Source: Elusimicrobiota bacterium
Lineage (GTDB): Bacteria > Elusimicrobiota > Elusimicrobia > UBA1565 > UBA9628
Assembly (NCBI GenBank): GCA_027452025.1
Contig: DAIDHI010000086.1
Span: 15,294-79,293 of the forward strand
Direction of reading: 5' to 3'
Length of the DNA: 64,000 nt
Positions 13,599 through 34,900 of the stretch are shown in pieces. The translations under genes and the position numbers were made by a program. The notes beneath the pieces are model-generated. The model was not told the origin of the DNA and made no database searches. It saw nothing but the letters and a program-made list of their open reading frames with translations. The first letter of the stretch is position 1; each line of letters begins with the position of its first letter.

Positions 13599-14162
13599 CT
13601 ATTTCTTGGCGAGGATGCGGGGCAGCACGACCCCGACCTGGCTTTGGTACTTGCCTTTGCGGTCCGCGTAGGCGGTCTCGCAGACCTCGGTGCCCTCGAG
13701 AAACAGCAGCTGCGCGATGCCCTCGTTGGAATAGACCTTGGCGGGCAGGGGCGTGGTGTTCGATATCTCGAGGGTCAGATAGCCCTCCCAGGTCGGTTCG
13801 AGAGGCGTGACGTTGACGATCATGCCGCACCGCGCGTAGGTGCTCTTGCCGAGGCACACGGCGAGGATGTTTCGCGGGATCTTGAACTTCTCGACGGTGC
13901 GCGCCAGCGCGAAGGAGTTGGGCGGGATGATGCACTCGGAGCCTTTATGATCGACGAAGGACTTGTTGTCGAAGTTCTTGGGATCGACCAGGGCGCCGTA
14001 GACGTTGGTGAAGATCTTGTATTCGTCGGCGACGCGGATGTCGTAACCGTAGGAGGACAGTCCGTACGAAATCTTGCCCTCGCCGACCTGCCCGTCGACG
14101 AAGGGCTCGATCATATTGTGCTCGCGGCACATCTGGCGGATCCACTTATCGGGCTTGAGCAT
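13599..14162 (-). CDS. dcd: dCTP deaminase
   Basis: [11 protein letters not shown]...YGYDIRV...[31 protein letters not shown] matches Dcd. The internal Met at 14162 is used, because the track ORF to 14243 adds 27 non-conserved residues. Confidence 0.85.
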
Positions 14163-14253
14163 GCTTTTCCCTCGGTCCGGCATCGCCGGTCCCGTCGAGG
14201 ATATCAGCGCCAGATTCTCGCTTTTTGACGGGCTCTCAAGCAATCCACCGCGG

Positions 14254-15420
14254 TCAGGTCCGATTCAAGAATTTTACGGCAAGGGCGGTCACGACGCCCG
14301 CACCCAACAGAGCCAAGCCGGCGTTGGTCCCGGCGGCCGCGGGGATTCCCAAGGCACCGGCGGCCATGGCCAGCAGAAGGAAGGCCATGTAACCGGCGGC
14401 ACCCACCGCCACCCCGAGCGCCCCGGGCAAGAGCCAATCGATCCGCTCGCCGGAGTCGCGCATCAAAAACGGCATCGTGGCGGCTCCCGCCAAGAGATAC
14501 GCCAGAAACACGGGCGAAAGGAAATAGCTCGAGGCCACGAGCAGGGCCATGCCTCCCGCCAACGCGCCGATGGCCGCCCCGTCGATCGAGGAATCTTCGA
14601 ATTCGCCGCGCGTGACAAGAGCGCCGATCAGCGCGCCCAGCCCCATCGCCGAGAACGCAAGCAGGACGCTGGCAAGGCCTTCATGCTGCGCGGCCAGGCA
14701 TGAGAGTTGCTGCGCGAGCTGGGCGAGCGCGGGACTCGCCGACCGGTCCGCCAACAGGCGCGAGGTCATCGCCGCCGGGGCCGCGGCAAGAGCGAAAACG
14801 GACCAGGCCCGCCCGGGAGCCCGGGGCGTGGACGATGAGCGAACCGCCGCGGAGGGGCGAGCCAGCATCGATACCTTTCCCGCTCCAAGCCGGCTCGAGA
14901 CGCCCCGAACCGAGCCGCCCGACTCGCCGCCCTCGCTGACGCGCAGGCCTCGGCCGCCGTCGAAAAGCTCCCGGCCGTCGGGCAGCGCCTGGGAAGCCTT
15001 TTCGGCCGAGTCCGACCCAGCCGCGGCAAAGCGGCGCGGCCGCGCCGGCGCGGCCGCGGCTCGCCCCGGCGCGCCGGAAAACGAGAGCGCGGAAGCGGCG
15101 GAGGCCGCCGAGACCTTGGTCGCCGCGGCGAAGACGCCTCCGGCGGCGCTTCTCGCCGCAGAACCGGCGGCGGCAGTCCCGGGAACGGACGCAGCGGCTG
15201 AGGGCGCTGCGGCGGCCTCCGGCATGGAAGTCATCGGGCTGGACGGCGCCAAGCCTGGATCCGGCAGGGCAAAGCCGAACCCGCTCATCGCGCCCGCCGA
15301 AAGATGGGAAGAAGGGAGCTCAACTCGCGAAGATTCGCCCTCCACGGCGGCCCGCGCCGAAGCGGCTGGCAAGCTCAAAGCGGCGCACGCGATGAAGGCG
15401 AAGAATGATCGTGATCTCAT
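14254..15420 (-). CDS. Secreted Ala-rich protein with C-terminal multi-helix Gly-zipper membrane domain
   Basis: 388 aa; signal peptide [24 protein letters not shown]; C-terminal [23 protein letters not shown] resembles the repeats of the 8499..9443 protein. Confidence 0.4.
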
Positions 15421-15502: not shown

Positions 15503-16864
15503 CTACGCTTCGACGTCGGCCGCGCCCCGGCGCCAGAGCCGACGGACCGCCTCGGCGGCCGCATGGCCGCTGACGACGGCGCTTTCGATCGTCGCCGGCA
15601 GCCCGGTCCGCGTCCAGTCGCCCGACCAGACGAATCCCTTCATGCCGGCGCTCGCGGCCCGCGGCCGCAGGGCCTCGGCGCCGGGCACGGGAGACAGCGT
15701 GGCGAAGGGCTCCTTGACGACCTTCCAGCGCTGGATCGTCGCTTTTTGGAAGGCCGGCAGGCAACGGGCGAGGTCGCGCTTGGCCAACTCGAGCAGGGCC
15801 TTGGGCTCCCAAGCCAGAAGCTTGCGCGCTCCGCTGACGACCAACGAAAGATACTGCCCGCCGCCCGCCTCGCCCAGGATCTTCGACTTGTCGAAGGCCC
15901 AGTGGGTCTCCGTGCCGAGCAGGCCGACGAGCGGGACGTCGAGGACCGGGCGGTCGAGCCACAGATTGACGCCGACGATGGGCGCAGCCGCCAGCCGCCG
16001 CCAGGAGCCGAGCAGAGGCTGCGGCAGCGGCAGCTTGGCCAGGTCCCAGGGCGGCAGCGTGGACACCGTCACGGGCGCGCGCAGGCTCTCACCGCCTTCA
16101 AAACAGGCCCCAGCCACGCCGCCGTCCTCCTCCAGGAGCGCCGAGACCTTGCGGGAGAGCAGAACGGCGCCACCGCGCGCCTCGATATAGCGCCGCGACC
16201 CGTCGGTATAAAGGTCGGACAAGCCGACGCGGGACAATGCCAAACGCGTGCTCTCCACGTCGCGGTAGAAGACCTCGCGCAACGCTTGGACCAAGCCCGT
16301 CGCCGAGGCGAGCTCCGGCCGCTCGTTGAGGATGCCCAGGGCGAGCGGGTCGAAGAGCCGCTCCTGGACGCGGGGCGATTGGCCCAGACCGGTCAGCCAC
16401 TCGCGCACCGTCAGGCCGTCGATGGCGTCGAGCGATCCTCCGTCCAGCGCGCGCATCGCGCGATCGAAGCGCCAGAGGCCCGCTTTGTCGCGCAGGGAAA
16501 GCCCGCGCAAGCCGAGAACTCCCGCGGCCAGGTGGAGCGGCGATCCCAGCGCCTGCGGGCAGCGCAGGACGTCGCGGCGGCCGTGAGCGTCGGCGTAGTC
16601 GACGCGGATGCGCGGCAACAGCTGAAGGCAGCCCTCCGTCCCTATGCGCCGCAGGAACGCCCGAGTCTGCCGGTAGCAGCCCATGAACAGGTGCTGCCCG
16701 TTGTCGACGATGGAGCCGGTCTCCGGGTCGCGGAAGGAGAAGGCCCGCCCCCCTAGGTGCGGCTTCTTCTCCGCGACGGCGACGCGCAGGCCCTGCTCGG
16801 CCAGGGCGCTGGCGCAGGAAAGGCCGGCGAAGCCCCCGCCGATGACCAGGGCGTCAAAATCCAT
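15503..16864 (-). CDS. hpnE: Hydroxysqualene dehydroxylase / amine-oxidase-family FAD enzyme (HpnE-like)
   Basis: Starts MDFDALVIGGGFAGLSCASALAEQG (Rossmann GxGxxG). Phytoene-desaturase-like, last gene after two squalene-synthase-family genes. The track start at 17041 is an upstream in-frame extension; ATG at 16864 is used. Confidence 0.75.
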   Translation of the reverse strand: MDFDALVIGGGFAGLSCASALAEQGLRVAVAEKKPHLGGRAFSFRDPETGSIVDNGQHLFMGCYRQTRAFLRRIGTEGCLQLLPRIRVDYADAHGRRDVLRCPQALGSPLHLAAGVLGLRGLSLRDKAGLWRFDRAMRALDGGSLDAIDGLTVREWLTGLGQSPRVQERLFDPLALGILNERPELASATGLVQALREVFYRDVESTRLALSRVGLSDLYTDGSRRYIEARGGAVLLSRKVSALLEEDGGVAGACFEGGESLRAPVTVSTLPPWDLAKLPLPQPLLGSWRRLAAAPIVGVNLWLDRPVLDVPLVGLLGTETHWAFDKSKILGEAGGGQYLSLVVSGARKLLAWEPKALLELAKRDLARCLPAFQKATIQRWKVVKEPFATLSPVPGAEALRPRAASAGMKGFVWSGDWTRTGLPATIESAVVSGHAAAEAVRRLWRRGAADVEA

Positions 16865-17705
16865 GGCAATACAGCCAAGCGCGCCCGGCCAGCCCCGCCT
16901 TGCGCCACCCGGGAACGCGCTCCCGCGGGCCGAAGAGCACGCGAAAGCCGTTTCTCTTGATGCGCTCGAGCAAAGCCTCGTAGATGTGGGCCATGACCTC
17001 GGCGGGCAAGAGAGCCGGGCGGTCCCTGAAGTCGACGGCATTGCGGGCCCGCTGATAGGAGACGCTGGCGCGCTTGTAGAGTCCTTCCATGAGCCGATCG
17101 AAAGCCGGGGAGTGCTCGCGCCGCAGGAGCGCCTCTCGCGAATAGCCGGCCTGGCGCATCTCGGCCGCGGGCAGATAGACGCGCCCGAGCTCGAGGTCGG
17201 CGCCGACGTCGCGGATGATGTTGGTCAGCTGGAAGGCGAAGCCGAAGAGGTCGGCGAACTCCTCGATGCGCTCCCGCGGCGTGCGCTCGCAGCCGAAGAT
17301 GCGTACGCAGAGGCGCCCCACGCTGCAAGCCACGCCGCGCATGTAGGATTCGAGGTCGGCGTAGGTCTCGAAGGCCGCGCCTTCCAAATCCATGGAGCAG
17401 CCCCGGATCATCTGAAGGAACTCCTCCTTCGGCAGCGAGAAGCGCTTGACCGCCGGGGCCAGGCGAGCGGCCACCGGATGGGTCGGCTCGCCGCGGAACA
17501 GGCTTTCGATCTCGGCGCGCCAGAAGTCGAGCTCGGCTCGCGCCTGCTCCTTCGTCCGGTCGCCCGCGTCGACGATGTCGTCGATGAGACGGCAGTAGGC
17601 GTAGACGGCCGAAAGGGCCTCGCGCTTTTCGGCGGGCAGGAACAGGAAGCCCAGGAAGAAGTTGGAGCTCTTCTCGGCTTTGGCCGGCGCCGCCGACGAG
17701 ATCAT
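16854..17705 (-). CDS. hpnD: Squalene/phytoene synthase family protein (HpnD-like, presqualene diphosphate synthase)
   Basis: YAYCRLIDDIVD (Asp-rich motif 1) and NIIRDVGADLELGRVYLP (motif 2). Internal Met at 17705 is chosen so that it overlaps the hpnC stop. Confidence 0.7.
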   Translation of the reverse strand: MISSAAPAKAEKSSNFFLGFLFLPAEKREALSAVYAYCRLIDDIVDAGDRTKEQARAELDFWRAEIESLFRGEPTHPVAARLAPAVKRFSLPKEEFLQMIRGCSMDLEGAAFETYADLESYMRGVACSVGRLCVRIFGCERTPRERIEEFADLFGFAFQLTNIIRDVGADLELGRVYLPAAEMRQAGYSREALLRREHSPAFDRLMEGLYKRASVSYQRARNAVDFRDRPALLPAEVMAHIYEALLERIKRNGFRVLFGPRERVPGWRKAGLAGRAWLYCHGF

Positions 17706-18586
17706 TTCAGCAGCGCGCGCACCGCCAAGGGAATCCAGTCGCCTTTGGACAGCGACGGGCGGCGCGTCAAGCTGTCGTAGTCCTGGTCGCGGATCTTGCG
17801 CAGGACCTGCCGGCCGCCCAGCCACGTCAGGCGGATTTCCCAAGACAGCGGCCAGGAGAGCCGCTCCGGCAGGACGCGGCCTTCTTCAAATAGAGCCCGC
17901 GTGCGGCTGACCTCGAACTTCATGAGGCCGCGCAGCTTCTCGTTGACCACTCCCATGCGCAGGTCGCCCTCGGAGTAGCCGTAGGCCTTGAAGTCCTCCT
18001 CGGGTATGTAGATGCGGTCCTTCTTCAGGTCGACGGAGACGTCTTGCCAGAAATTGGCCAATTGGAGGGCGGTGCAGACGGCGTCGGACTGGCGGAAGAG
18101 CTCTTCGTCGCGGTAACCGTGGATCATCAAGACGATGCGTCCGACGGGATTGGCCGAGCGCCGGCAGTAGTCGAGGACCTCGGCGAAGGTCGAGTAGCGC
18201 TTCTTCTCGGTGTCTTGCAGGAAGGCGTCCAGCAGATCGTCGAAGGGCTGGACGGGCAGACCCAGCTCGCGGAAGGTATGTTCGAGCGCGACGAAGACGG
18301 GATGCGTGGCCGGGGTCTTGCCGACCTGGAGGAGTTGGCGGCGCCAATCGAGCAGGCGCTGCCGGCGCACGCCGTCATATTCCGGCTCGTCGGCGAAGTC
18401 GTCGGCGATGCGGGCAAAGCCGTAGAGGGCGGCGACGTGCTTGCGCAGGCGCCGCGGCAGCAGGCGCGAGGCCACCGGGAAGTTCTCGTAGTGGGAGGCC
18501 GCCAGGTCCTGGCAGAAGCGGTAGGCGGCCGCCGCGTCGGAGGGATCGGACACCGTGGCCTCGCAGGCCCGAAGCGTGCCGGCCAT
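17702..18586 (-). CDS. hpnC: Squalene/phytoene synthase family protein (HpnC-like)
   Basis: LYGFARIADDFADE and ANFWQDVSVDLKKDRIYIP motifs. Start ATG at 18586-18584 overlaps the obg stop by 1 nt (TAATG). Confidence 0.7.
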   Translation of the reverse strand: MAGTLRACEATVSDPSDAAAAYRFCQDLAASHYENFPVASRLLPRRLRKHVAALYGFARIADDFADEPEYDGVRRQRLLDWRRQLLQVGKTPATHPVFVALEHTFRELGLPVQPFDDLLDAFLQDTEKKRYSTFAEVLDYCRRSANPVGRIVLMIHGYRDEELFRQSDAVCTALQLANFWQDVSVDLKKDRIYIPEEDFKAYGYSEGDLRMGVVNEKLRGLMKFEVSRTRALFEEGRVLPERLSWPLSWEIRLTWLGGRQVLRKIRDQDYDSLTRRPSLSKGDWIPLAVRALLK

Positions 18587-19920
18587 TATTTGCCGACCCC
18601 GATGCGCGTGCGCTTGTGGCGCCGGCGAAGCCGATGGAGCGGCGCGTAAGGCTTGTCGCTCCACTCGAACTGGAAGCAGCCGCAGCGCACCTCGTCGCCG
18701 TCTCGGATTCCGGCGCGCTTGAGCGCCTTGTCGACGCCGATCTTCTTGAGCGTGCGCTGAAAGCGGTCAACGGCCTCGGGAAGCGTCGTTTCGAGCATGG
18801 CGGCGGCGCGCTCCACGAAGGGGCCCTTGAGCAGGAACACGCCCCCGCCCTGGGGCTCTACGCGGAAGCCCGGCTCGACCTTCACCCGCGCGGCGCCGCG
18901 CGCGGCCTCCTCGTCGAAGGTCTCGGGCGCGGGATGGCGCGAGAGCTCCTCGATGACCCGGTCGAGCAGAGCGTCCACACCCTCGCCGGTGGCCGCCGAA
19001 ATCCCGAGGACCTTGCGCGCGCGCAAGCGCGCGCGCAGCTTCTTGAGCACTCCTTCGGCGCCCGGCAGGTCGAGCTTGTTGACGGCCAGGACCCTCGGCT
19101 TGCCGGCGAGAACGCGCGAGAAGGACTTGAGCTCGGTCTCGATGGCGCCCACGCCGGACAACGCGTCCTTGTCCCCGAAGCCCGCGGGATCGACCAGATG
19201 GACCAGCAGGCGGGTGCGCTCGACGTGGCGCAAAAATTCCGTGCCGAGGCCCTTGCCCCGATGGGCGCCCTCGATGAGGCCCGGGATGTCGGCGACGACG
19301 AAGTGCACGCCCTTGTGGGAGGCGACCCCGAGATTCGGAGACAGCGTCGTGAAAGGATAATCCGCGACCTTCGGGCGCGCGGCCGTGATGCGCGACAGCA
19401 GGCTCGATTTCCCGGCGTTGGGAAAGCCAACGAGCCCGACGTCGGCGAGCAGCTTGAGCTCGAGCGTGAGAGTGACGCGGTCGCCCGGCGCGCCCTTCTC
19501 GCACAGGCGCGGCGCCGTGTTGAGCCGGGATTTAAAGGAAAGGTTGCCTCGCCCGCCGCGGCCCCCGGCCGCGGCCAGATATCGCTGGCCGGCCTTGTGG
19601 AGATCGGCGACGAGGACGCCGTCGCGAAAGACCACCGTGCCGACCGGCACCGGCACGACGAGATCGGAGCCGGCTTCACCGGTCTTGTCGCCCCCCTTGC
19701 CGTGGCCGCCCGAGGCGGCCTTCAGGTGCGGCCGCTGGGCCAGATCGAGCAGCGTGGTGATGCGCGGCGACGCCTCCAGGAACACGTCTCCGCCCTTGCC
19801 CCCGTCGCCGCCGTTGGGGCCCCCGAACTCGAGATATTTCTCCCGCAGGAAGGAAAGACAGCCGTTGCCGCCGTCTCCGGCGGCAACGTGCACGCGGACC
19901 TTGTCGATAAAGTCCGCCAT
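18586..19920 (-). CDS. obg: GTPase Obg/CgtA
   Basis: 444 aa; N-terminal Obg fold with glycine-rich GGDGGKGG, G-domain GFPNAGKSSLL, C-terminal extension. Confidence 0.9.
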   Translation of the reverse strand: MADFIDKVRVHVAAGDGGNGCLSFLREKYLEFGGPNGGDGGKGGDVFLEASPRITTLLDLAQRPHLKAASGGHGKGGDKTGEAGSDLVVPVPVGTVVFRDGVLVADLHKAGQRYLAAAGGRGGRGNLSFKSRLNTAPRLCEKGAPGDRVTLTLELKLLADVGLVGFPNAGKSSLLSRITAARPKVADYPFTTLSPNLGVASHKGVHFVVADIPGLIEGAHRGKGLGTEFLRHVERTRLLVHLVDPAGFGDKDALSGVGAIETELKSFSRVLAGKPRVLAVNKLDLPGAEGVLKKLRARLRARKVLGISAATGEGVDALLDRVIEELSRHPAPETFDEEAARGAARVKVEPGFRVEPQGGGVFLLKGPFVERAAAMLETTLPEAVDRFQRTLKKIGVDKALKRAGIRDGDEVRCGCFQFEWSDKPYAPLHRLRRRHKRTRIGVGK

Positions 19921-20713: not shown

Positions 20714-23239
20714 ATGGCGCGCCCGGACCATTCCAAATCGGAGAGGAGACACTTGAAACAGAAAACCACGGCGGCGGCGGGTCACAAGACGGCGAGGGTG
20801 CGGGTCACCGAGAACCAGCTCAAGGTCATCAAGGATAAGTATCTGCGCGACGCGCCGAGCCTGGAGGCGTGGCTGGAGAACGTCGCGCGCAACATCGCCC
20901 TGGCCGAGATCCTCTTTCATCCGGACGCCGAGCGCTGGGGCGCCTTCGCCGGCGTGCGCCACCGCCGCGAGGACTCCCTGCTGCTCCTGCAAGACGGCCT
21001 GACCGAGGCCTCGGAACGGGACGCCAATTTCAGCCGGCTGATCGCCAACCTCCAGCGGGTCTACTCCTCCGTGCCCGAGGCGCGCAAGCTCGTCGACCAG
21101 TGGGCCGGCCGCTATTTCGCCCTCATGTCGGCCTGGGATTTCCTGCCCAACTCCCCCACGCTCATGAATGCCGGCCGCGAGCTGCAGCAGCTCTCCGCCT
21201 GCTACGTCCTGCCCGTGCCCGATTCAATGGAGGCCATCACGAAGTCGCTGGCCGCCCAGTCCCTCATACAGAAATCCGGCGGCGGCACGGGATTCTCCTT
21301 CAGCCGCCTGCGGCCCAAGGGCGATCTGGTCAAGAAGACCCAAGGCGTCGCCTCCGGCGCGGTCTCGTTCATGCAGCTCTTCGACAAACTCACCGACGTC
21401 GTCAAGCAGGGAGGGACCAGGCGCGGCGCCAACATGGGCATCCTGCACTACACCCACCCCGAGATCAAGGACTTCATCACGATGAAGTCCCAGTCCTCCG
21501 TGATGGAGAACTTCAACGTCTCGGTGGCGATCGACCAGCGCTTCATGAACGCGGTCGCCTCCGACGCCGAATATGACCTGATCAACCCCCGCACCGGCGA
21601 GGCGGCGGGCAAGGCGCGGGCCAAGGAGATCTTCGACTTGATGGTCGAGCACGCCTGGAAGTCGGGAGACCCCGGCTTCATCGTCGTCGACCGCATCAAC
21701 GACTCGGGCTCCAACCCCACGCCGGCGCTCGGCCAGATCGAGAGCACCAATCCCTGCGGCGAGCAGCCGCTCCTGCCTTGGGAACCCTGCAACCTCGGCT
21801 CGCTCAACTTGTCCAACTTCGTCGAGGGCGAGATCGGGCAAGGGACCTTCGACTTCGAGCGCCTCAAGGGCGCGGTCTCCTCGGCGGTGCGCTTCCTCGA
21901 CGACGTCATCGAGGTCAACAACTATCCTCTGCCCGAGATCGAGGCCATGGCCAAGGGCAACCGCCGCATCGGCCTGGGCGTCATGGGCTACGCGGAAGCC
22001 CTCGTCAAGATGGGCCTGGCTTACGACTCGCAGCCGGCCTTGGACTTCGCCGCCAAGGTCATGGAGTCCATCAACCAGAGCGCGCTTTCCGAGTCGGAGG
22101 CGCTGGCGCGCGACCGGGGAGTGTTCCCGAACTGGAAGGACTCGATCTACGATCCGGAAGGGCGTTTTTTCCGGGGCGAGGAGCGCCGTCCGCGCAATTG
22201 CGCCCGCACGACGATCGCGCCGACGGGGACCATCGCCATCGCCGCGGGCCTGCAAGGCAGCGGCATCGAGCCGTTCTTCGCCATCGTCTACACGCGCTAC
22301 AACGCGAAGGCGCTCGATGCCCTCAAGAAGGGAGAGACGCCCGACGCCAAGGACGTCTTCTTCGAGATCAACCCGCTCTTCAAGGAGATCGCGCGGCAAA
22401 ACGGCTACTTCGGCCTGGCCGAGCACGACCTGTGGAACCGCGTCAGCGAAAACCACAAGGCCGTGCGCGGCATCAAGGAGATCCCGGAAAGCGTTCAGCG
22501 CCTTTTCCCGACCGCCCACGACGTGCCCGTGGACATCCACGTGCGCGTGCAGGCCGCCTTCCAAGCCCACGTGGATAACGGGGTCTCCAAGACCATCAAC
22601 CTGCCCAACAGCGCATCGGTCGAGGACGTGCGCCGCGCCTACACCCAGGCCTATGAGCTCGGCTGCAAGGGCATCACGATCTACCGCGACGGCTCCAAGG
22701 CGCAGCAGGTCTTGAGCCTGGCGCCCACGCCGACGAAGATGAAGAGGCGCGATCCCGCGACCGCCTTCGGCGTCTCGTCGGAATACTATCAGATCAAGAC
22801 CGGCTACGGCCCGCTCCACATCCACATCAACTACGACGAGCGGGGACCCTATCAGGTCTTTTCCAACATCCCGCCGCTCGGCACGGAGATCTCGGCGCTG
22901 ACTTCGCTCGTCGGCATCCTGCTCTCCAAGTATATGGCCGAGGGCGGCGACCCGATCCGCATCCTAAAGCATCTCAACTCCGTCAAGGGCGACAAGCCGG
23001 TGGGATTTGGGGAAAACAGGGTCAACTCCATCGCCCACGCCCTCGCCATCGCCCTGCGCCAGCACTTGAAAAAGACCGGCTGGATCACCGAGGAGGAGGC
23101 CGGCCAGAAGGCGAAGCTCGACCTCGCGGCGCTGCCGCAGGCGGAATACTGCCCAAAGTGCTATTCCTCCAACATCGCCCACGAATCAGGCTGCTCCGGG
23201 CCCACGTGTCACGACTGCGGCTACTCCGAGTGTTCGTGA
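20714..23239 (+). CDS. nrdJ: Adenosylcobalamin-dependent ribonucleotide reductase (class II)
   Basis: 841 aa; TNPCGEQPLLPWEPCNLGSLNLSNF active-site region; C-terminal Cys-rich tail CPKCYSS...CSGPTCHDCGYSEC. Start uncertain; an alternative GTG lies near 20796. Confidence 0.9.
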   Translation: MARPDHSKSERRHLKQKTTAAAGHKTARVRVTENQLKVIKDKYLRDAPSLEAWLENVARNIALAEILFHPDAERWGAFAGVRHRREDSLLLLQDGLTEASERDANFSRLIANLQRVYSSVPEARKLVDQWAGRYFALMSAWDFLPNSPTLMNAGRELQQLSACYVLPVPDSMEAITKSLAAQSLIQKSGGGTGFSFSRLRPKGDLVKKTQGVASGAVSFMQLFDKLTDVVKQGGTRRGANMGILHYTHPEIKDFITMKSQSSVMENFNVSVAIDQRFMNAVASDAEYDLINPRTGEAAGKARAKEIFDLMVEHAWKSGDPGFIVVDRINDSGSNPTPALGQIESTNPCGEQPLLPWEPCNLGSLNLSNFVEGEIGQGTFDFERLKGAVSSAVRFLDDVIEVNNYPLPEIEAMAKGNRRIGLGVMGYAEALVKMGLAYDSQPALDFAAKVMESINQSALSESEALARDRGVFPNWKDSIYDPEGRFFRGEERRPRNCARTTIAPTGTIAIAAGLQGSGIEPFFAIVYTRYNAKALDALKKGETPDAKDVFFEINPLFKEIARQNGYFGLAEHDLWNRVSENHKAVRGIKEIPESVQRLFPTAHDVPVDIHVRVQAAFQAHVDNGVSKTINLPNSASVEDVRRAYTQAYELGCKGITIYRDGSKAQQVLSLAPTPTKMKRRDPATAFGVSSEYYQIKTGYGPLHIHINYDERGPYQVFSNIPPLGTEISALTSLVGILLSKYMAEGGDPIRILKHLNSVKGDKPVGFGENRVNSIAHALAIALRQHLKKTGWITEEEAGQKAKLDLAALPQAEYCPKCYSSNIAHESGCSGPTCHDCGYSECS

Positions 23240-23261: not shown

Positions 23262-23290
23262 TTGATTTCGGGCCGTAAAGGCCCTATACT
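23262..23290 (+). promoter_or_regulatory. Candidate promoter for the pilin operon (TTGATT-17 nt-TATACT), with the GGGCC-GTAAA-GGCCC hairpin inside the spacer
   Basis: TTGATT 23262-23267, 17-nt spacer, TATACT 23285-23290. The spacer contains the perfect inverted repeat GGGCCGTAAAGGCCC (23270-23284), which could also act as the nrdJ terminator stem. Confidence 0.35.
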
Positions 23291-23331
23291 TGCGGCAAGC
23301 TCCGCCCGCGCCGAGAGACGGAGCGCGCCGC

Positions 23332-26046
23332 ATGCCCATGCCCAAAAATCCGCCGCTCCTCTCGGCTCGCTCCGGCGTGACCCTCGTCGAGCTCATGATC
23401 GCCGTGGCGATCCTGTGCGTGGGCATCCTCGGCTTCGTCGGGGCCTTCCGCTACATCACCCAGTCCATCCACGTCTCGCGCACCCGCACCCTGGCCACCA
23501 ACCTCGCCCAGGAGAAGATCGAGACCCTCAAAAACCTCTCGTATTACGAGCTGCTGCTGACCACCGCCACCGCCTACGACCCCAACTTCACCCCGTCGAT
23601 TCCCTACGACACGGCCAACTACGGGCCGGAGACCGAACAGATCGGCGGCATCACCTTCACGCGCTACACCTACGTGACCATGGCGCAGATGACCAACAAC
23701 GTCATCACGACGGCCGCCTCGGACTACCCCGACAGCGGCATGAAGCAGATCGAGGTCAACGTCGTCTGGACGGACAACGGCGTCGAGAAGAAATTCACGC
23801 TCAACAACCTCTACGAAAACCCCAACCTCGCGCCCCTGGACGCCAGCATCTCGGGCTACGTCAAGGACGGCTCCGGAAACCCCATCGAAGGCGCCTACGT
23901 TCGCGTCGAGCAGAACAGCGACTGGGCGGCCCAGACGGACGCGACGGGCCGCTACGGCTTCGACGTCTACCACGGCACCTACACGGTCCGCGCCTCGTCG
24001 GCCGGCTACTTCGACGGGTTCACCCAGACCCTCGACGCTTACGAAGGGGCCAGCCTCGCGTCGCCGAACACGGACATGTATCTGACGGCTGTCGGCTCCG
24101 GCACCATCGCCGGCATCGCGTGGATCAATCCCGACCTGGTCATCAGCCAGGTCGTGGCGTCGACGGCGCAGTACGGCCTCAATCAGAACGGCCAGGATTT
24201 CGCCGGCTTCCAGGCCCAATACGTCGAGCTTTATAACCCGACCACCTCGGAAATCGACATCGCCACCCCCGGCGGCTCGCCCCTGGTCACGCTCGACTTT
24301 CAAAGCGCCCAGCATTGCACCTATTACACCGACTGCACCACCCCCGGCACGGGCATCTTCGTCGACTATATCAGCACCTACGTGGCTCCCTATCACTATT
24401 ATCTCTTCGCCAATACGAACACTTTCGTCGTCAACGGCCAATGGGTCGCGGCCGACGCCGTCTATGACGACGCCGCCGGCAACGATTGCGGGACGCATCC
24501 GAGCGGCAACTTCTGGAACACCGGCGTCAGCCCGCCGCTCAAGATGATCATCGTCCCCGGGCACGGAGGCAGCGTCGGCGTGGAGCGCGTCAACGGCATG
24601 GGCTCCGGCACCTACGTCGACGTGGTGGGCTTCGAGGACAACGGCTCGGCGCCGACGTACTACAACGGAAACTACATCACCTTCGGGACCTACAACGACT
24701 TTCCCTTGGGCCAGGAACTGGTGCGCATCTCGAGCCCGCTGCCGAATTTGAGCCTGACCGACATGGCCGCCTACGGCCACGCCTACAACTCGCAAAACAA
24801 CGCCAACGACTTCGTCTATTTTCCGGCGATCAACGGAGTCCCGTTTTCCCCTCAGAACAGCCGCGGCGCCGCCTTCCTTCCCATCGCCGGCGTCCCGGCC
24901 GTGGGCGCCAGCGTCGCGGCCAGCGACGGGGTCTCCGGCTCGACGCAGGCCTACGCGGCCTACATCGCCAGCGGGACGCTCAACCTGCTCTACGCGCCCT
25001 TCACGCTGCCGGGGGTCAGCACGTCTCCACCCGCGGCGCTCTGCAACGGAGCGTGCTGGAACGTGATCCTCTCCAGCGGCTCCTACTTCGCGCAGATTTC
25101 CACCGTCTCCGTGCTCCAGAACCAGACGACGGTCATTCCCGGCCCCTACACGGTGGCGGGCTCGACGAACGGCCTGGAGAGCGTCATCTTGGACTCGTCG
25201 ACCAGCAACGGATTCATCCGGGGCCAGATCACCGATGCCAACGCCGTCCCCCTCAACGGCGTGGCGATCCAAGTCACCGGTTACGTGGCCGGGTCGCAGA
25301 ACACGTCGGCCAACGGCTGCTACTTCATCGAGACGGCGACGGGCACCGTCACCGAGGTGATCAACCCCAACAACGCCTCGGCGCCCCAATACATCCAGGT
25401 CGTGCAGAGCACCACGGTCAGCCAGGGCGCGATCACCGAGGCGGATTTCGAGCTCAACAAGGGAGGCGCCCTCGAAGGCTATCTCACGACGGGCACCACG
25501 CCCCTGCCGAACTACGTCGTCGAGGCCTCCATCGGGGGCGACCAGGCCGGCTCCGGGACTTCGGACACCTCCGGCTTGTTCATCATCCACAACCTTTCCA
25601 CCGGCACCTATACGGTGAGTCCGGTGCTCGACTCCGACCAGTCATCGAGCCCGAGTTCTCTCTCCGCCACGGTCAACCCGACGAGCACCGTCTTCATCGG
25701 CACGTTCACGGTCTCCGGAGCCTTGGGCGCCATCGCGGGATCCATCATGAGCAACGGCGCGAGCCTGACCACGGGCGCGCTGATCGTGGCTTCCAGCGGC
25801 ACGATCTCCTCCACGCCGCCGGTGATCTACGGCTCGTCGGCGCCGGCCATGTCCCCGATCATCTACTCCGTCTCGAGCAAGGCCGACGGGACGTACTCCT
25901 TGCCGGTGCGCGGCGGCTACACTTACAACCTGATGGTCTGGGTTCCGACCATCAGCGGCAGCAACGTCACGACGCAGAGCAAGAGCTATTCGGGCATCAC
26001 CGTGTCGCCGGGACAGACGACCAAGGAGAACGTCACCGTCCCATGA
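23332..26046 (+). CDS. Giant prepilin-type protein (class III signal peptide) with multiple carboxypeptidase-regulatory-like beta-sandwich domains
   Basis: Leader MPMPKNPPLLSARSG then VTLVELMIAVAILCVGILGFVGAF (G-1, E+5). ~904 aa mature region rich in S/T/G/N, with repeated CarboxypepD_reg-like units (SGYVKDGSGNPIEGAYVRVEQ...TDATGRYGF; GQITDANAVPLNGVAIQVTGY...). The track start at 23290 is an in-frame upstream extension. Confidence 0.7.
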   Translation: MPMPKNPPLLSARSGVTLVELMIAVAILCVGILGFVGAFRYITQSIHVSRTRTLATNLAQEKIETLKNLSYYELLLTTATAYDPNFTPSIPYDTANYGPETEQIGGITFTRYTYVTMAQMTNNVITTAASDYPDSGMKQIEVNVVWTDNGVEKKFTLNNLYENPNLAPLDASISGYVKDGSGNPIEGAYVRVEQNSDWAAQTDATGRYGFDVYHGTYTVRASSAGYFDGFTQTLDAYEGASLASPNTDMYLTAVGSGTIAGIAWINPDLVISQVVASTAQYGLNQNGQDFAGFQAQYVELYNPTTSEIDIATPGGSPLVTLDFQSAQHCTYYTDCTTPGTGIFVDYISTYVAPYHYYLFANTNTFVVNGQWVAADAVYDDAAGNDCGTHPSGNFWNTGVSPPLKMIIVPGHGGSVGVERVNGMGSGTYVDVVGFEDNGSAPTYYNGNYITFGTYNDFPLGQELVRISSPLPNLSLTDMAAYGHAYNSQNNANDFVYFPAINGVPFSPQNSRGAAFLPIAGVPAVGASVAASDGVSGSTQAYAAYIASGTLNLLYAPFTLPGVSTSPPAALCNGACWNVILSSGSYFAQISTVSVLQNQTTVIPGPYTVAGSTNGLESVILDSSTSNGFIRGQITDANAVPLNGVAIQVTGYVAGSQNTSANGCYFIETATGTVTEVINPNNASAPQYIQVVQSTTVSQGAITEADFELNKGGALEGYLTTGTTPLPNYVVEASIGGDQAGSGTSDTSGLFIIHNLSTGTYTVSPVLDSDQSSSPSSLSATVNPTSTVFIGTFTVSGALGAIAGSIMSNGASLTTGALIVASSGTISSTPPVIYGSSAPAMSPIIYSVSSKADGTYSLPVRGGYTYNLMVWVPTISGSNVTTQSKSYSGITVSPGQTTKENVTVP

Positions 26047-26543
26047 GGAACGCCGCGCGCCGAACCGGCTATACGCTCGTCGAGCTGATGATGGTCGTCG
26101 CCATCCTCGGCATCATCGCGAGCGCCGGCCCGCTTCTGCTGCGCAACCTCCAAGACTTCTTTTTGATGACGACGGCCCGCAACGAAATCGAGCGCGACGC
26201 GCGCTCGAGCCTGGACACCATCAATCGCTTCATCCGCCAAGCGGTGGACGGGACGATCGCGATCGACACCCCGCCCAGCGGCGGCGGGCCTTACTCCCGG
26301 ATCCGGTTCACGGACATCGAAGGACGCTCGATCAGCTTCTATCAAAGCGGCTCCAACCTCATGATGAGCGTGAACTCCGACCAGTCGACCCTGAGCAAGG
26401 ACCTGGGCTTCATCGCCTTCACGTTCCCGCGCACCGACGATCCGACCATCGTCAGCGTGGCGATGACCATGACCAAGGACATACAGCTCGGCCGAAAGAA
26501 GGTCCTCGAGCTGACCATCCAGAACGTCCGGGTGATGAACTGA
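26043..26543 (+). CDS. Minor pseudopilin (GspH/I/J-like), prepilin-type N-terminus
   Basis: MRNAARRTG then YTLVELMMVVAILGIIASAG (G-1, E+5); 166 aa; ATGA overlap with the giant pilin stop. Confidence 0.7.
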   Translation: MRNAARRTGYTLVELMMVVAILGIIASAGPLLLRNLQDFFLMTTARNEIERDARSSLDTINRFIRQAVDGTIAIDTPPSGGGPYSRIRFTDIEGRSISFYQSGSNLMMSVNSDQSTLSKDLGFIAFTFPRTDDPTIVSVAMTMTKDIQLGRKKVLELTIQNVRVMN

Positions 26544-27847
26544 TGCGCGCCAAGAGGCTCGCGTCGCAAAGCGGGCAGATCCTGCTGATCGTCCTGGCCC
26601 TGCTGATCGTTGCCAGCGTCCTCGTGCCGCTGATGGTCTACTACGCGCAGCGCGAGTCCGTCTGGACGGCCAAGCAGGCCAAGACGACGACGGCCTTCCA
26701 CCTCGCCGAGTCGGGCATCGAGAAGGGCTATCGGGCCGTCACCGCTTCCACCGTGACGTGGAACGACCTTCAAAACGGGACCCTCATGAGCGGCTACAAG
26801 TTCGATCAGGCCTACGACGACGTCGCCGGCGGCAGCTACGCCATCTCGATTTCGAGCGGCCCCAGCACCCAGGAAGCCACGATCATCTCGGTGGGCAAGG
26901 ACGCGCTGGGCCGCGAGGTCCGGGGCATAGAGGCCGTCTACGCCAACTCCACTCTCAGCGACGTCGCCATCATGGGCGGCGCGGGCGTCGACGTCAGCGG
27001 CAACAACATGACTATCCAGTGGGGCTCGGTCGTCAGCCAAAGCTCGATTACGCCCAACGGAGCGCTCTATCCCAGCTATTGGAGCGCCTCGGACATCGTC
27101 GGCCTGGACACCAACGGCGCGACGCCCCCCAATTGCGACTCGCCCAACTGCTGGTGGTGGCACTCCTACGATTCGTCGCTCCCGTCCATGCCCACCCTTG
27201 ATTTCATGTCCTATGAGAGCTCGGCCGCCGCTGAGGACGCCGCCTGCGCCGGCGGCACCGGCTCCTGCGCCTGCGCGGCCTGCGGGCATTTCGACACCAC
27301 GAGCTGCAGCGGCTCCTGCGACGACACCGGCGGCCACACCTACTACGTGACCGGCAACTGGTCGAGCTTCGGCGGCCCGCTCAAGGGCAACATCGTCATT
27401 CTCGGCAACGTGACCACGCCAAACGGCTCGATGAGCGGGCAATCCATCAGCGCCGCCGTCCCTCAGCAGGCCTGGATGCAGTACTGCAACGACTGGAGCT
27501 ATTATCTGTCCACCTTCGGCGACACCGTGGCGCAGAGCAAGTATCCCAACAGCTGCCCCGGGCTCTACAGCTCGTATAAATCGGCCTCGACGCTCACCTA
27601 TCCGATCACCCCGGTCGTCGACGGACTGCTTTATATCGGCGGCAACTTCACGGGGCCGACCGGCGGCGGAAACAGCACGCTCGGCTACGGCGTCTTGATG
27701 GTAAAGGGGACCGTCACTCTCAACTCGAACTCCCATGTGACGTGGTATTACAGCTCCGCCGCGAGCCAAGGCATCATGACGACGACGGTCAATCTCAGCC
27801 GCATCTCCTGGCAGGACTACGTCACGCCCTGGCCCTCCGGCCTGTAG
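26543..27847 (+). CDS. GspK/PilX-like pseudopilin with Cys-rich insert
   Basis: 434 aa; N-terminal SGQILLIVLALLIVASVLVPLMVY hydrophobic segment typical of GspK/PilX. Ser/Thr/Asn-rich; insert CAGGTGSCACAACGHFDTTSCSGSCDDTGGH; overlaps the upstream stop (TGATG). Confidence 0.55.
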   Translation: MRAKRLASQSGQILLIVLALLIVASVLVPLMVYYAQRESVWTAKQAKTTTAFHLAESGIEKGYRAVTASTVTWNDLQNGTLMSGYKFDQAYDDVAGGSYAISISSGPSTQEATIISVGKDALGREVRGIEAVYANSTLSDVAIMGGAGVDVSGNNMTIQWGSVVSQSSITPNGALYPSYWSASDIVGLDTNGATPPNCDSPNCWWWHSYDSSLPSMPTLDFMSYESSAAAEDAACAGGTGSCACAACGHFDTTSCSGSCDDTGGHTYYVTGNWSSFGGPLKGNIVILGNVTTPNGSMSGQSISAAVPQQAWMQYCNDWSYYLSTFGDTVAQSKYPNSCPGLYSSYKSASTLTYPITPVVDGLLYIGGNFTGPTGGGNSTLGYGVLMVKGTVTLNSNSHVTWYYSSAASQGIMTTTVNLSRISWQDYVTPWPSGL

Positions 27848-27867: not shown

Positions 27868-28503
27868 GTGGTGCCAGCCAAAGCCCCTCGGGGGCTCTTT
27901 GTCGTCTTCGAGGGCCCCGACAAGTCCGGCAAGTCCACGCAAGCGCGCCTCCTGGCCGACGCCTTGAGGCAGCGCGGCTTCTCGGTGGTGCACACGCGCG
28001 AGCCGGGCGGCACCTCGTTCGCCGAGGAAGTGCGCCGCATCCTGCTCTCGCCCGACCATGCCGTCCGTCCCCTGGCCGAGCTGCTCCTTTACGAGGCCTC
28101 GCGGGCCCAGCACACAGACGAGAAGCTGCGGCCGGCGTTAAGAGCCGGCCGCGTCGTCGTCTGCGAACGCTACACCTTGTCCACGCAGGTCTATCAAGGC
28201 CGCGCGCGCGGCATCCCTCTCAAGACCATCGACGCCGCCAACGCCCTGGCCACCGCAGGCCTAAAGCCCGATCTGACCTTCGTGCTCGACATCCCGGAGG
28301 AGGACTTCGACTCGCGCGACGCCGGCCGCGAGCACGACCGCCTGGAACGCGAGCCCGAATCGTTCCGCCGGAGGGTGCGGGAAGGCTACCGCGCCCTGGC
28401 CCCGAAGGCCAAGGCCGCGCTGCTGGACGGCCGCCGGCCCGTCGAGGAGCTGCACCGCCGCATCCTCGCCGCGGTTTTGAAGCGCCTGGAGCGCCGGAGG
28501 TGA
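27868..28503 (+). CDS. tmk: Thymidylate kinase
   Basis: 211 aa; P-loop FEGPDKSGKSTQ, TREPGGT and LID region. Confidence 0.9.
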   Translation: MVPAKAPRGLFVVFEGPDKSGKSTQARLLADALRQRGFSVVHTREPGGTSFAEEVRRILLSPDHAVRPLAELLLYEASRAQHTDEKLRPALRAGRVVVCERYTLSTQVYQGRARGIPLKTIDAANALATAGLKPDLTFVLDIPEEDFDSRDAGREHDRLEREPESFRRRVREGYRALAPKAKAALLDGRRPVEELHRRILAAVLKRLERRR

Positions 28504-29441
28504 GCCTCTTTCGCCTGTCCGGCCAGGCCCGCGCCGTCAAGGCCCTCGAGGGCCTCATCGGCGCCGGACGCCTGCCCTCGGCCATCCTGCTGTCGGGCAT
28601 CGAAGGCTGCGGCAAGGCCCGCCTGGCCCACGAGCTGGCCCAGCTCCTCGTCTGCCCGCGGCGGCCCCCGGACGGGCCTGCGTGCGGCGACTGCCGCGAC
28701 TGCCAAGCCGTGGCCAAGCGCGTCCACCCCGACGTCAAGGCCGTGGACGCCGCTTACCAGGCCGCGCTGCGCGAGGAAGAAGCCGCCAAGCAGCGGAGCT
28801 TGCGCGTCGATACCATCCGGCACCTGCGCCGGGACATGGAGCTCAAGTCCCTGCTCGGCGGCTGGAAGGTCGCCGTCATCGAGGACGCCCACACCCTGGA
28901 GATCGAAGCCGCCAACGCGCTGCTCAAGATCCTGGAAGAGCCTCCTCCCAAGACGCTCTGGCTCCTCGTCACCTCCCAGCGCGACCGCATCCCGAAAACC
29001 GTGCTTTCGCGCTGCTTCCAGCTGCGCTGCTCGCCGCTTCCCGACGAAGCGGTCGCGGCGATCCTCGCGGCCCAAGGCGTCGACGCCGGGCGGGCGCGGG
29101 AGCTGGCCGCCCTGTGCGAAGGCTCGGCCAGCCGGGCCCTCGAGCTTTCCCGCCGCGAGGGCTGGCCCGCGGCCCTGACGCAAGGCCCGCTGGGGCCGAT
29201 CGCCGCGGGAGACTCCCTGCCCAAGGAGCTTTATCTGGCGCGCGCCGAAGCCGAGCTCGCTCTCTTCGCCCTCGGCCAGCGGCTGCGGCTGCGGCCCCTG
29301 TCCGGCGAGGCCGATTTCGAGGCGGTAGACCGCCCCCTGCGCGAGCTGGCCGAGCTTCGCCGGGCGCTGCGCGCCAACGCCGATCCCCGGGCCGTGCTGA
29401 CGCTGGCCGCCCTCGAAACCCAAGGAGCCTTGGCGAAATGA
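28500..29441 (+). CDS. holB: DNA polymerase III delta-prime subunit
   Basis: GTG start overlapping the tmk stop. AAA+ clamp-loader: AILLSGIEGCGKARLA, Zn-module-like CPRRPPDGPACGDCRDC, SRC motif VLSRCFQL. Confidence 0.8.
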   Translation: MSLFRLSGQARAVKALEGLIGAGRLPSAILLSGIEGCGKARLAHELAQLLVCPRRPPDGPACGDCRDCQAVAKRVHPDVKAVDAAYQAALREEEAAKQRSLRVDTIRHLRRDMELKSLLGGWKVAVIEDAHTLEIEAANALLKILEEPPPKTLWLLVTSQRDRIPKTVLSRCFQLRCSPLPDEAVAAILAAQGVDAGRARELAALCEGSASRALELSRREGWPAALTQGPLGPIAAGDSLPKELYLARAEAELALFALGQRLRLRPLSGEADFEAVDRPLRELAELRRALRANADPRAVLTLAALETQGALAK

Positions 29442-33991: not shown

Positions 33992-34900
33992 ATGGTCGTT
34001 GCAGCGCTCGTCCTAGCCGCAAGCCTGCCGCGCGCCGCCGCCGCCCAGAGCTCCGCCTTGGCGCAGCTGCGGCAGATGGCCCCCGAAGATTCCGCGGTCG
34101 TCCTTCCCGCGCCGGCCGCCGCCCCGACGGGCGCCTGGGCCTCCGTCGTGGCTCCGCCGGACCGCTACGCCCAGGCCTCCCGGCTCGGGCGCCCCGCGAC
34201 CGTGGTCGACCTCGATGAGCAGCTCAACGTCCTGTGGCGCTCCGCCACCACTTTTCCCGCCGGCGATCGCACCGTCCACGTCTTCGGCCTCAAGGCGGAG
34301 AACGACGACAGCCGCAGCGGCTGGTTCGTCGGCTTGTACGTCGACGGCGCTCCCGGGCCGGTCTTCCTCAACGGCGCGGCGATGGCCCATTGCATCATCT
34401 GCTCCGGAGGCTACGGCAACGCCGTCCTCAACGGCATCCCGTTCGTCTTTCACATCGAGGGCATCGGGATCTTCCATCACTCTCCCAAGGATATCAAGCT
34501 CGTGGTCCAAGCCCAGGGGTTCAGGCGCGCCTTTTCCCTCTATCAGATCACCAAAGGCGTCTACGACGTCGGCTATCCCGTGCGCGTCGGCAGCACCGTC
34601 TACCACTTGATCTATACGCCCGATTTCGATAGCGACGGCAACGGGCACTTCTCCCATTACACGGGCGACCGCTCGATCTCCCTGATGTTTCAAGACGGAA
34701 GCGACTTCAGCGGCCTGCACCGCTACGAGCGGCAGATCCCGTCCGACGGGCGCGTGCTGATCACGACGCCGCTGCGGGTTGGATCCACGGGCGACAGCTA
34801 TCAGCCCGGAGACGTGACGCTCGGACTGCGCATCGACGGCCGCAATCTCGAGATCTACTACCCGATCAATCCGTCGGTTCCGACGACCTACGCGCCTTGA
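33992..34900 (+). CDS. Secreted hypothetical protein
   Basis: 302 aa; signal peptide MVVAALVLAASLPRAAAAQ; no family recognised. Confidence 0.45.
   Translation: MVVAALVLAASLPRAAAAQSSALAQLRQMAPEDSAVVLPAPAAAPTGAWASVVAPPDRYAQASRLGRPATVVDLDEQLNVLWRSATTFPAGDRTVHVFGLKAENDDSRSGWFVGLYVDGAPGPVFLNGAAMAHCIICSGGYGNAVLNGIPFVFHIEGIGIFHHSPKDIKLVVQAQGFRRAFSLYQITKGVYDVGYPVRVGSTVYHLIYTPDFDSDGNGHFSHYTGDRSISLMFQDGSDFSGLHRYERQIPSDGRVLITTPLRVGSTGDSYQPGDVTLGLRIDGRNLEIYYPINPSVPTTYAP

Follow-up and report, generated by a model that had tools for sequence, protein, structure and literature searches.

The window analyzed is a 64,000-nucleotide stretch of Elusimicrobiota DNA, in which three overlapping genes occupy positions 23332-27847 of the forward strand. 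Gene 1 (23332-26046, +, 904 aa) and gene 2 (26043-26543, +, 166 aa) share an ATGA overlap at 26043-26046, and gene 2 and gene 3 (26543-27847, +, 434 aa) share a TGATG overlap at 26541-26545; both overlaps had been proposed in an earlier, sequence-only reading of the locus and both were verified. The open reading frame of gene 1 spans 23290-26046 (+), with its likely start at the ATG at 23332, 8 nt downstream of a GGAG motif. The 92 nt that separate gene 1 from the RNR gene contain a promoter-like site (TTGATT-17-TATACT, 23262-23290, +), identified by consensus match only. The start at position 23262 given in the earlier reading is the -35-like hexamer of this site and not a start codon; the end that it gave, 27847, is exactly the stop of gene 3. 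A 768-aa antisense frame (23284-25590, −) and other overlapping open reading frames were set aside as high-GC artefacts, as the GC3 of 0.90-0.91 in each of the three genes favors the forward frames. No tandem DNA repeats were found within the three genes. The trio may be co-transcribed with the tmk-holB-metG genes that follow it. There is a weak terminator-like hairpin at 27882-27896, within the start region of tmk.

The N-terminus of gene 1 carries a class III (prepilin) signal, which the earlier reading had called bona fide. Cleavage is predicted after Gly15 (-1); in a full-length alignment of 63 orthologues, conservation of this residue and of Glu20 (+5) reaches at least 90%, and both are invariant in a 20-sequence alignment of the pilin module. 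The Pfam N_methyl model matches residues 12-34. Orthologues of gene 1 are 834-937 aa long. Because Glu+5 is conserved in the orthologues, the loss of this residue that the earlier reading had named as an argument against itself is not seen. Both N_methyl and TIGR02532 match genes 1 and 2 above their cut-offs. The AF2 model of gene 1 (pLDDT 86) has the architecture that had been anticipated, with a leader (residues 1-15), a 50-residue alpha1 helix (18-67) and a pilin beta-sheet (80-162) that together form the pilin module (23332-23835, +; pLDDT 78-94 over helix and sheet), followed by six beta-sandwich domains in tandem.

Structure modeling and a fold search describe the pilin module as GspI-like or PilV-like. 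I-type profiles point in the same direction, with PilV matching 20/20 family members, ComGE 19/20 and GspI 14/20, although all of these matches lie below the curated cut-offs and, like the J-type matches of gene 2, cover mainly the N-terminal 55-67 positions; the PilV match of gene 1 itself reaches 31.5 bits, where the cut-off is 52.2, and spans positions 2-55 of 139. A profile of the pilin module also matches ordinary pilins of 125-160 aa, which align with 80-95% of the module at approximately 30% identity; two of them are named PilV in their source. A sequence-profile search of the PDB with the same module picked up nothing beyond the alpha1 helices of major pilins and gave no subunit assignment. 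On the modeled fold, gene 1 is most likely the I subunit (PilV/GspI/ComGE class) of a minor pilin set, in which a pilin module of about 150 residues is followed by six grafted modules that form an acidic stalk.

The stalk comprises the roughly 735 residues beyond the pilin module, and its length is estimated at about 20 nm, since each of the six domains would contribute 3.5-4 nm. D1 (residues 169-252; 23836-24087, +) is a CarboxypepD_reg or transthyretin-like sandwich, D2 (residues 253-520; 24088-24891, +) resembles a lamin-tail domain and contains a YVELYNPT motif, and D3-D6 (residues 521-904; 24892-26043, +) are four further beta-sandwich domains; D4 and D5 are clearly homologous to CarboxypepD_reg, and weak Pfam matches to TTR, SpaA and fn3_3 also occur in this region. 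The Pfam CarboxypepD_reg model (PF13620) matches gene 1 in four stretches (E 8.6e-22; 77.7 bits, cut-off 32.3). The pilin of about 900 residues that had been described as rich in Ser, Thr, Gly and Asn, with CarboxypepD_reg-like units, is thus borne out in size, domain content and composition (T 10.7%, G 10.2%, S 10.1%, N 6.5%). Judged by hhalign, the domain repeats are ancient and have diverged. Variability within the protein is highest in D2; D5 and D6 are conserved to the same degree as the pilin module, which would be unusual in a ligand-binding tip and could instead point to a structural function or to a protein partner that is itself conserved. A Foldseek search with the full model returned mostly the tandem Ig-like domains of Gram-positive sortase pilins and ushers. 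A sortase-pilin identity was rejected in view of the class III signal of gene 1 and of its C-terminus (…KENVTVP), which has no terminal LPXTG sorting signal; the resemblance was taken as one of fold only.

Gene 2 had been taken for a small prepilin, and this was upheld: N_methyl matches 26/26 family members, and among the 26 orthologues Gly9 (-1) is at least 90% conserved and Glu14 (+5) invariant. Its subunit class is less sharply drawn. The J-type models GspJ (16/26, best E 9.1e-5), ComGF (8/26) and PRK10557 (16/26) all match below their cut-offs, again mainly over the N-terminus, and are mixed with generic N-terminal matches to H, G and I models; a PDB profile search with the family recovered the alpha1 helices of major pilins only, with no subunit assignment. 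From these sequence matches, gene 2 is probably a J-like pilin (GspJ/PilW/ComGF).

Gene 3 had been presented as a second additional prepilin-type gene. Gly11-Gln12 is conserved in this family, but none of the N-termini sampled from a 66-sequence alignment has an acidic residue at +5, so that the description holds for gene 2 and not, in the sense of a Glu+5 prepilin, for gene 3. The model (pLDDT 92) has a long N-terminal helix and a GspK-like pilin fold (module residues 1-140), for which the fold search returned GspK/XcpX and Thermus ComZ; the extra domain (residues 141-434) is an ice-binding-protein-like beta-solenoid and not the alpha-domain of GspK. The proposed GspK/PilX likeness therefore has support at the level of fold. 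The window protein has no Pfam match, and PilX_N matches only 7/66 orthologues (best E 6.8e-5). The protein had also been called Cys-rich, which is true of the window copy, with 10 Cys, and only partly a trait of the family, whose median is 6; conservation is 89% for Cys198 and Cys203 and 74% for Cys315. It has been established that tip complexes are capped by a subunit that lacks Glu5 (PMC10191384). The modeled fold, together with the missing Glu+5, predicts that gene 3 is a K-type cap (GspK/PilX/ComZ-like), and for such a cap the absence of Glu+5 is expected. The Gln at +1 is an odd first residue for a processed pilin and counts against a filament-tip reading.

At least 144 genomes of Elusimicrobiota, counted at species level, carry the cassette, and the order and strand of the three genes are the same in 69/69 informative loci. 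CP096137.1 and OY969767.1 are examples of complete genomes with the cassette. A frequent setting is that of the window, RNR-[trio]-tmk-holB-metG, in a block that also includes genes for L21, L27 and Obg; the flanks differ at other loci. The cassette is mostly single-copy, and in some genomes it is duplicated as a unit. Searches of the literature on Elusimicrobia pilins yielded nothing on this cassette, and those combining carboxypeptidase regulatory-like domains with pilins yielded no paper on Elusimicrobia by title or abstract.

Genes 1 and 2 contain the only two G-x4-E prepilin motifs in the window. As had been noted, no pilus ATPase or secretin gene is adjacent, and the nearest machinery lies approximately 34.5 kb away in the same window, where pilC, encoding a T2SSF platform protein (62300-63529, −; Pfam T2SSF E 1.1e-68), is accompanied by the C-terminal part of a PilT-type retraction ATPase gene (63545-64000, −) that continues past the window end. 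The latter contains TGHLVFATLHTN in the translation of 63545-63997 (−), which we take to be a PilT-type motif and on which the family call is based. When the other larger open reading frames of the window were scanned with Pfam, none matched an ATPase, a secretin or a prepilin peptidase. The cassette has no linked gene for an H subunit, a major pilin, a prepilin peptidase, an assembly ATPase or a secretin, whether at this locus or in the surrounding 8 kb at 80 related loci, and apart from one weak match those surroundings contain no pilC or pilT like those of the window. The presence of LptE in the window indicates a diderm envelope.

These observations suggest, with a probability of about 70%, that the minor pilins encoded by the trio make up the core complex at the tip of an Elusimicrobiota type IV filament, or the one that primes its assembly. 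What has been observed are motifs in the sequences, the predicted folds, the order of the genes, their translational coupling and their joint conservation across the phylum, from which we infer the processing of the three proteins, their assembly into a complex, its location at the tip and the nature of its ligand. The filament would most probably be a type IVa pilus, the pilC and pilT genes of which sit at the end of the window. The earlier reading had regarded the arrangement as non-canonical. However, the subunit assignments of genes 1-3 would make the trio a trimmed version of the canonical I-J-K core set (pilV-pilW-pilX or gspI-J-K), in canonical order, lacking an adjacent H subunit and bearing modules grafted on I and K. 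In the proposed mechanism, prepilin peptidase would cut after the conserved Gly, and the three alpha1 helices would then associate into a bundle within the inner membrane, topped by the K subunit. Major pilins would polymerize below this bundle, and the emerging filament would bear the two grafted modules at its tip, where they may bind a surface ligand; a carbohydrate or particle is likelier than DNA. The trio would most likely serve to display adhesive modules, with a putative role as an adhesin.

Two other systems that use pilins of this kind have to be weighed. The trio could be the tip of a T2SS pseudopilus (GspI-J-K), acting in the periplasm as a piston or in substrate loading without exposure at the surface. 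The best pilin-fold matches of the trio are indeed the T2SS subunits XcpV, EpsI, GspK and XcpX, the probable I-J-K order is that of gsp operons, and the Elusimicrobium minutum genome paper is said to assign some pilin-like genes to a T2SS. However, the I-type and K-type folds are common to the T2SS, type IVa pili and Com pili (PMC10191384), and the fold matches therefore cannot separate a T2SS from a pilus. Neither here nor in the 80 related loci is gspG, gspH, gspD, gspE or gspF adjacent to the cassette; a retraction ATPase of the PilT type, which is a hallmark of type IVa pili, is among the only machinery seen in the window; and a 95-kDa stalk of some 20 nm, together with a beta-solenoid, fits a short periplasmic pseudopilus poorly. 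A pseudopilus tip is accordingly considered unlikely. Alternatively, the trio might be the DNA receptor at the tip of a competence pilus, as ComZ-PilA2 is in Thermus, possibly linked to nucleotide scavenging. The recurrent RNR-[trio]-tmk-holB synteny, the presence of dcd and thyX elsewhere in the window and the lamin-tail-like domain of gene 1, a domain that is also found in some extracellular nucleases, are in keeping with such a role. The synteny nevertheless has the appearance of a generic housekeeping block, because metG and the L21, L27 and obg genes belong to it, and the flanks differ at other loci. The proteins are moreover acidic (pI 4.3 for gene 1 and 4.7 for gene 3, with family medians of 4.95 and 5.8) and poor in basic residues, with only 25 and 17 Lys+Arg, respectively; gene 3 has 10 Lys and its solenoid a net charge of -11, whereas DNA binding by ComZ needs lysines. 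A DNA receptor was marked down for this acidic, lysine-poor character and is regarded as improbable.

It may also be asked whether the three proteins belong to a filament at all. The class III signal could serve only for export and anchoring in the inner membrane, as in an archaeal bindosome, with the stalk as an envelope-spanning or surface structural element. The phylum-wide and mostly single-copy conservation within a housekeeping block, the lack of linkage to pilus machinery and the even conservation of the stalk, its distal end included, would suit this arrangement, and E. minutum reportedly has dozens of pilE-like genes and no appendages that have been seen. However, the retention of Glu+5 in genes 1 and 2 and its loss in gene 3 is the pattern of a filament with a cap, and the probable I-, J- and K-like identities follow one another in canonical order, which leaves little probability for such a purely anchoring role. 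A broader and still unlikely proposal is that the cassette encodes a phylum-defining, vertically inherited envelope device, either a three-pilin filament that is tip-only or very short or a stalk complex anchored through its class III signals. The 95-kDa six-domain stalk and the beta-solenoid would here be a retractable grappling or contact organ with a core role, e.g., attachment to particles, hosts or partner cells. If true, this would account for the 69/69 conservation, the housekeeping position, the even conservation of the stalk and the duplication as a unit, as well as for the puzzle that E. minutum is said to pose, with many pilin-like genes and no visible pili.

Minor-pilin tip complexes set what a filament binds and whether it is assembled, and the examples studied so far are from a few proteobacteria, from Thermus and from streptococci. 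If the tip-complex reading is correct, the cassette would define a candidate complex of this kind for an entire, nearly uncultured phylum. The closest organizational parallel is the GspI-J-K / PilV-W-X / ComGE-GF-GG core (PDB 3ci0, 5vtm, 5bw0), with which the trio shares three consecutive genes in a probable I-J-K order and the presence of Glu+5 in the first two genes and not in the cap. It differs in having no adjacent H subunit or major pilin and in being unlinked to machinery; its I subunit has 904 aa rather than the approximately 100-140 aa of a single module, and its K subunit has a beta-solenoid in place of the GspK alpha-domain. The linkage of a canonical T2SS (gspC-O) or type IVa minor-pilin operon (fimU-pilVWXY1E) is likewise missing, the flanks being RNR and tmk-holB-metG.

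In Thermus thermophilus, ComZ acts with PilA2 as the DNA receptor at the tip of the competence pilus. Gene 3 has the same combination of a GspK-like pilin domain and a triangular ice-binding-protein-like beta-solenoid (PDB 6qvi, 6qvf), and ComZ itself was reported with the same pair of matches, to GspK and to ice-binding proteins (PMC6561018). The two proteins are only 15% identical, the partner I subunit is giant here, and the solenoid of gene 3 comes after the pilin sheet; unlike ComZ, gene 3 is doubtful as a DNA-binding protein because it is acidic and poor in lysine. As a second, very distant case of the ComZ design, it allows the role of ice-binding-protein-like solenoids at pilus tips to be asked about generally.

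Gene 1 combines an N-terminal IPR012902 motif with at least one domain that is not specific to type IV pilus biology, as in the definition of a modular pilin. In the survey of Raynaud et al. (2021), the IPR012902-PF13620 architecture was the third commonest, with 66 proteins (Dataset S1), and IPR012902-LTD was found in 6 proteins (PMC8179133). The cassette thus belongs, as a phylum-wide Elusimicrobiota member, to the modular minor pilins, a class that was known before, and it extends the picture of type IV filaments without altering it. The modular pilins of Streptococcus sanguinis (PilB with vWA, PilC with a lectin, and PilA) similarly form a three-pilin tip set with modules grafted on pilins. 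Compared with these and the other surveyed pilins, the present set is from a diderm, has six grafted domains rather than one and carries them on the I subunit, in an Elusimicrobiota family with no studied member. PilY1/PilC tip adhesins and the tapirins of Caldicellulosiruptor are also large adhesive proteins, found on the tips of type IV pili or in association with them. PilY1 and the tapirins are, however, non-pilins, whereas here the adhesive modules are fused to pilins, and the large extra domains on both I and K would be an extreme case of module grafting that stands in for a PilY1-type adhesin. A PilY1-like adhesin within the trio was itself considered and dismissed, as the three proteins have no beta-propeller Pfam match and the models of genes 1 and 3 contain no propeller.

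The multi-gene prepilin-type cassettes of Verrucomicrobia (Verru_Chthon, TIGR02596-TIGR02600) are also stand-alone prepilin-like sets away from machinery, and the trio is alike in this respect. All 26 gene 2 orthologues match positions 1-60 of Verru_Chthon protein C (best E 5.1e-10), but protein sizes and the remaining sequence are unlike. Membership of the trio in this cassette was rejected, as the gene 2 window protein scores 26 bits against 256.5 for TIGR02599 (361 positions), over positions 1-60 only.

The cassette comprises three + strand genes lying between a class II-type ribonucleotide reductase gene (20714-23239) and tmk-holB-metG (27868 onward). The open reading frame of gene 1 spans 23290-26046; translation probably begins at the ATG at 23332, with GGAG 8 nt upstream, to give a protein of 904 aa. 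The start at 23262 proposed in the sequence-only reading is not a start codon, and coincides with a promoter-like site (TTGATT-17-TATACT). Gene 2 (26043-26543, 166 aa) overlaps the gene 1 stop codon in an ATGA, and gene 3 (26543-27847, 434 aa) overlaps the gene 2 stop codon in a TGATG. GC3 was 0.90-0.91 in all three genes, matching the flanking housekeeping genes; the GC content of the window is ~64-72% (2-kb windows). Long antisense and out-of-frame ORFs across the trio are the usual high-GC artefacts. The best relatives of the window proteins all came from Elusimicrobiota metagenome-assembled genomes (MAGs). Genes of nucleotide and DNA metabolism surround the cassette (dcd, 13599-14243; the reductase; tmk and holB, 27868-29441; thyX, 43615-44478), and probably constitute a housekeeping block.

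Pfam searches of gene 1 found N_methyl at residues 12-34, four stretches of CarboxypepD_reg (E 8.6e-22; 77.7 bits, cut-off 32.3) and a lamin tail domain (LTD) match below threshold at residues 267-311. At least 262 full-length relatives exist, the 120 listed being 834-1017 aa long and 35-55% identical. The ORF is intact at such length in more than 100 species and is therefore no sequencing artefact. A lack of Glu+5 conservation among orthologues would have counted against the prepilin reading; in a 63-sequence alignment, Gly15 (-1) and Glu20 (+5) were at least 90% conserved, the few exceptions being gene calls that begin at an internal Met. The N-terminal helix and tandem Ig-like domains expected from the sequence were present in an AlphaFold2 model built on this alignment (pLDDT 86, pTM 0.60), in which a 50-residue helix (18-67) and a beta-sheet (80-162) are followed by six beta-sandwich domains, D1-D6 (~169-252, 253-520, 521-612, 613-708, 709-812 and 813-904). 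Foldseek matched the model to stalks of tandem Ig-like domains in Gram-positive pilins and adhesins. When the six domains were compared profile to profile, D1, D4 and D5 proved clear homologues (probability 92-96%), D3 and D6 were marginal, and D2, the LTD, was distinct. Conservation is as strong in the two most distal domains as in the pilin module (0.62-0.63) and weakest in the central LTD (0.47). Such a pattern is at odds with a simple adhesin; the distal end may have a conserved partner or serve a structural role.

The pilin module of gene 1 resembled I-type minor pilins (GspI/PilV/ComGE), matching PilV in 20 of 20 family members, ComGE in 19, GspI in 14 and XpsI in nine; none of these matches reached its curated cut-off, since the alignments are confined to the first ~55 positions. 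A profile of the module retrieved ordinary pilins of 125-160 aa at ~30% identity over 80-95% of its length, two of which are annotated as PilV at source. For gene 2, N_methyl was found in the window protein and in all 26 orthologues tested. The family matched the N-terminus of Verru_Chthon cassette protein C (26/26), GspJ (16/26), PRK10557 (16/26) and ComGF (8/26), and also generic G, H and I models; a J-type subunit (GspJ/PilW/ComGF) is the best guess, though not an established assignment.

The sequence-only reading had counted two further prepilin-type genes after gene 1. This held for gene 2 but not for gene 3, which lacks Glu+5; the whole window contains just two G-x4-E motifs. The gene 3 family, which comprises 198 clusters at 50% identity (E <=1e-30, among 1.84 billion representatives), is marked by a near-invariant Gly11-Gln12, a hydrophobic helix and an AFHLAE motif. 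The window protein had no Pfam match of its own, and seven of 66 orthologues reached PilX_N. Its description as Cys-rich was partly borne out: Cys198 and Cys203 (89%) and Cys315 (74%) are conserved, and the additional Cys-rich loop at 233-260 is peculiar to the window copy. By its predicted fold and its lack of Glu+5, gene 3 is a K-type subunit (GspK/PilX/ComGG). It has the design of ComZ, for which the same two similarities were reported, to GspK in the pilin part and to an ice-binding protein in the solenoid (PMC6561018).

Gene 1 relatives were present in at least 144 genomes, scanned at one genome per species. The best 80 were Elusimicrobia, Endomicrobiia and Elusimicrobiales MAGs, plus one 6.5-kb contig binned as Chloroflexi (CAIWTG010000031.1, locus L085), which holds all three genes of the cassette together with a weak match to pilC and is most likely mis-binned Elusimicrobiota. 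In all 69 loci that extend at least 2 kb past the gene 1 relative, relatives of genes 2 and 3 come next, with order and strand unchanged; four contexts with called genes showed the same pattern. The arrangement of the trio between the reductase gene and tmk-holB-metG recurs in many Elusimicrobiota loci, but not all. Several genomes carry two complete cassettes on one contig, convergent or divergent, and one has a tandem gene 3 duplicate (duplications at L039 3883-13658; L050 4712-13652; L041 3273-12738; L040/L044; L025 4513-6964). That the cassette is duplicated as a whole is consistent with its three products being co-adapted partners. In one MAG (L005, 14715-22505), a radical-SAM/SPASM, PqqD and ScmC-type peptide-maturation cluster lies downstream of the cassette, followed by an ORF annotated at 9,395 aa and extending past the end of the locus.

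The arrangement had been considered non-canonical. This needs correction, because the I-J-K order of the trio is that of gspI-J-K and pilV-W-X; the cassette is a pared-down version of the canonical core set, in which modules are grafted on and no H subunit is adjacent. The HIJK minor pilins are conserved and assemble into a complex at the tip, its cap being a subunit without Glu5; S. sanguinis has three pilins in their place, two with grafted adhesive modules (PMC10191384). A published survey of modular pilins counted over 1,200 of them, in 264 architectures; N_methyl with PF13620 is the third commonest (66 proteins), N_methyl with LTD accounts for six, and CarboxypepD_reg is classed as a carbohydrate-binding-like fold (PMC8179133). 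The class to which the cassette belongs is already known. In the literature searched, no description was found of the Elusimicrobiota gene 1-3 family, of an I subunit carrying a six-domain stalk, of its pairing with a ComZ-like cap, or of phylum-wide conservation of such a cassette inside a housekeeping block. The cassette is solid and well defined, and should be useful to those working on Elusimicrobiota or minor pilins, without surprising a specialist. K-type subunits with extra domains are familiar from GspK, ComZ and CofB.

The trio is best explained as a tip (priming) complex of a type IV filament. In this scheme all three subunits, two with Glu+5 and a cap without it, would be processed, their helices would bundle in the inner membrane, and major pilins would polymerise beneath them, so that the filament tip would present a ~20 nm six-domain stalk and a beta-solenoid to a putative ligand. 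The products of genes 1 and 3 are acidic, with pI 4.3 and 4.7, and contain little Lys or Arg, which argues against a ComZ-like role as a DNA receptor. The solenoid of gene 3 also resembles tapirins, which are cellulose adhesins. As to which filament carries this tip complex, a type IVa pilus is more likely than a T2SS pseudopilus, because a PilT-type ATPase (C-terminus, 63545-63997, -, running off the window end) adjoins pilC (T2SSF; 62300-63529, -). This step is weak, as the cassette is linked to neither machinery: in agreement with the sequence-only reading, no ATPase or secretin is adjacent and pilC and pilT are distant, and Pfam scans found no secretin, assembly ATPase or prepilin peptidase in the remaining larger ORFs of the window. 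Within 8 kb of the cassette in related loci, no relatives of the window pilC or pilT occurred except one weak match.

The presence of LptE in the window indicates a diderm envelope with an LPS-type outer membrane. Two overlapping ORFs of 284 and 257 aa (55971-57352, +) both match it, and may reflect gene duplication, a frameshift or wrongly called starts. No Pfam match at E <=1e-5 was obtained for several sizeable ORFs whose GC3 is coding-like (10385-12037, +; 14254-15420, -; 33992-34900, +; 39645-41033, -). Bacterial microcompartment genes, encoding an EutN/CcmL vertex protein, a BMC shell protein and a PduL-type phosphotransacylase, adjoin triosephosphate isomerase (497-2553, -). An amine-oxidase-type FAD enzyme followed by two tandem squalene/phytoene synthase paralogues (15503-18664, -) forms an HpnC/D/E-like arrangement that suggests squalene synthesis. 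Glycogen-type genes, encoding a GlgC-like nucleotidyltransferase and a GH57 plus DUF3536 protein, occupy 45480-50131, with a GH113 gene on the opposite strand.
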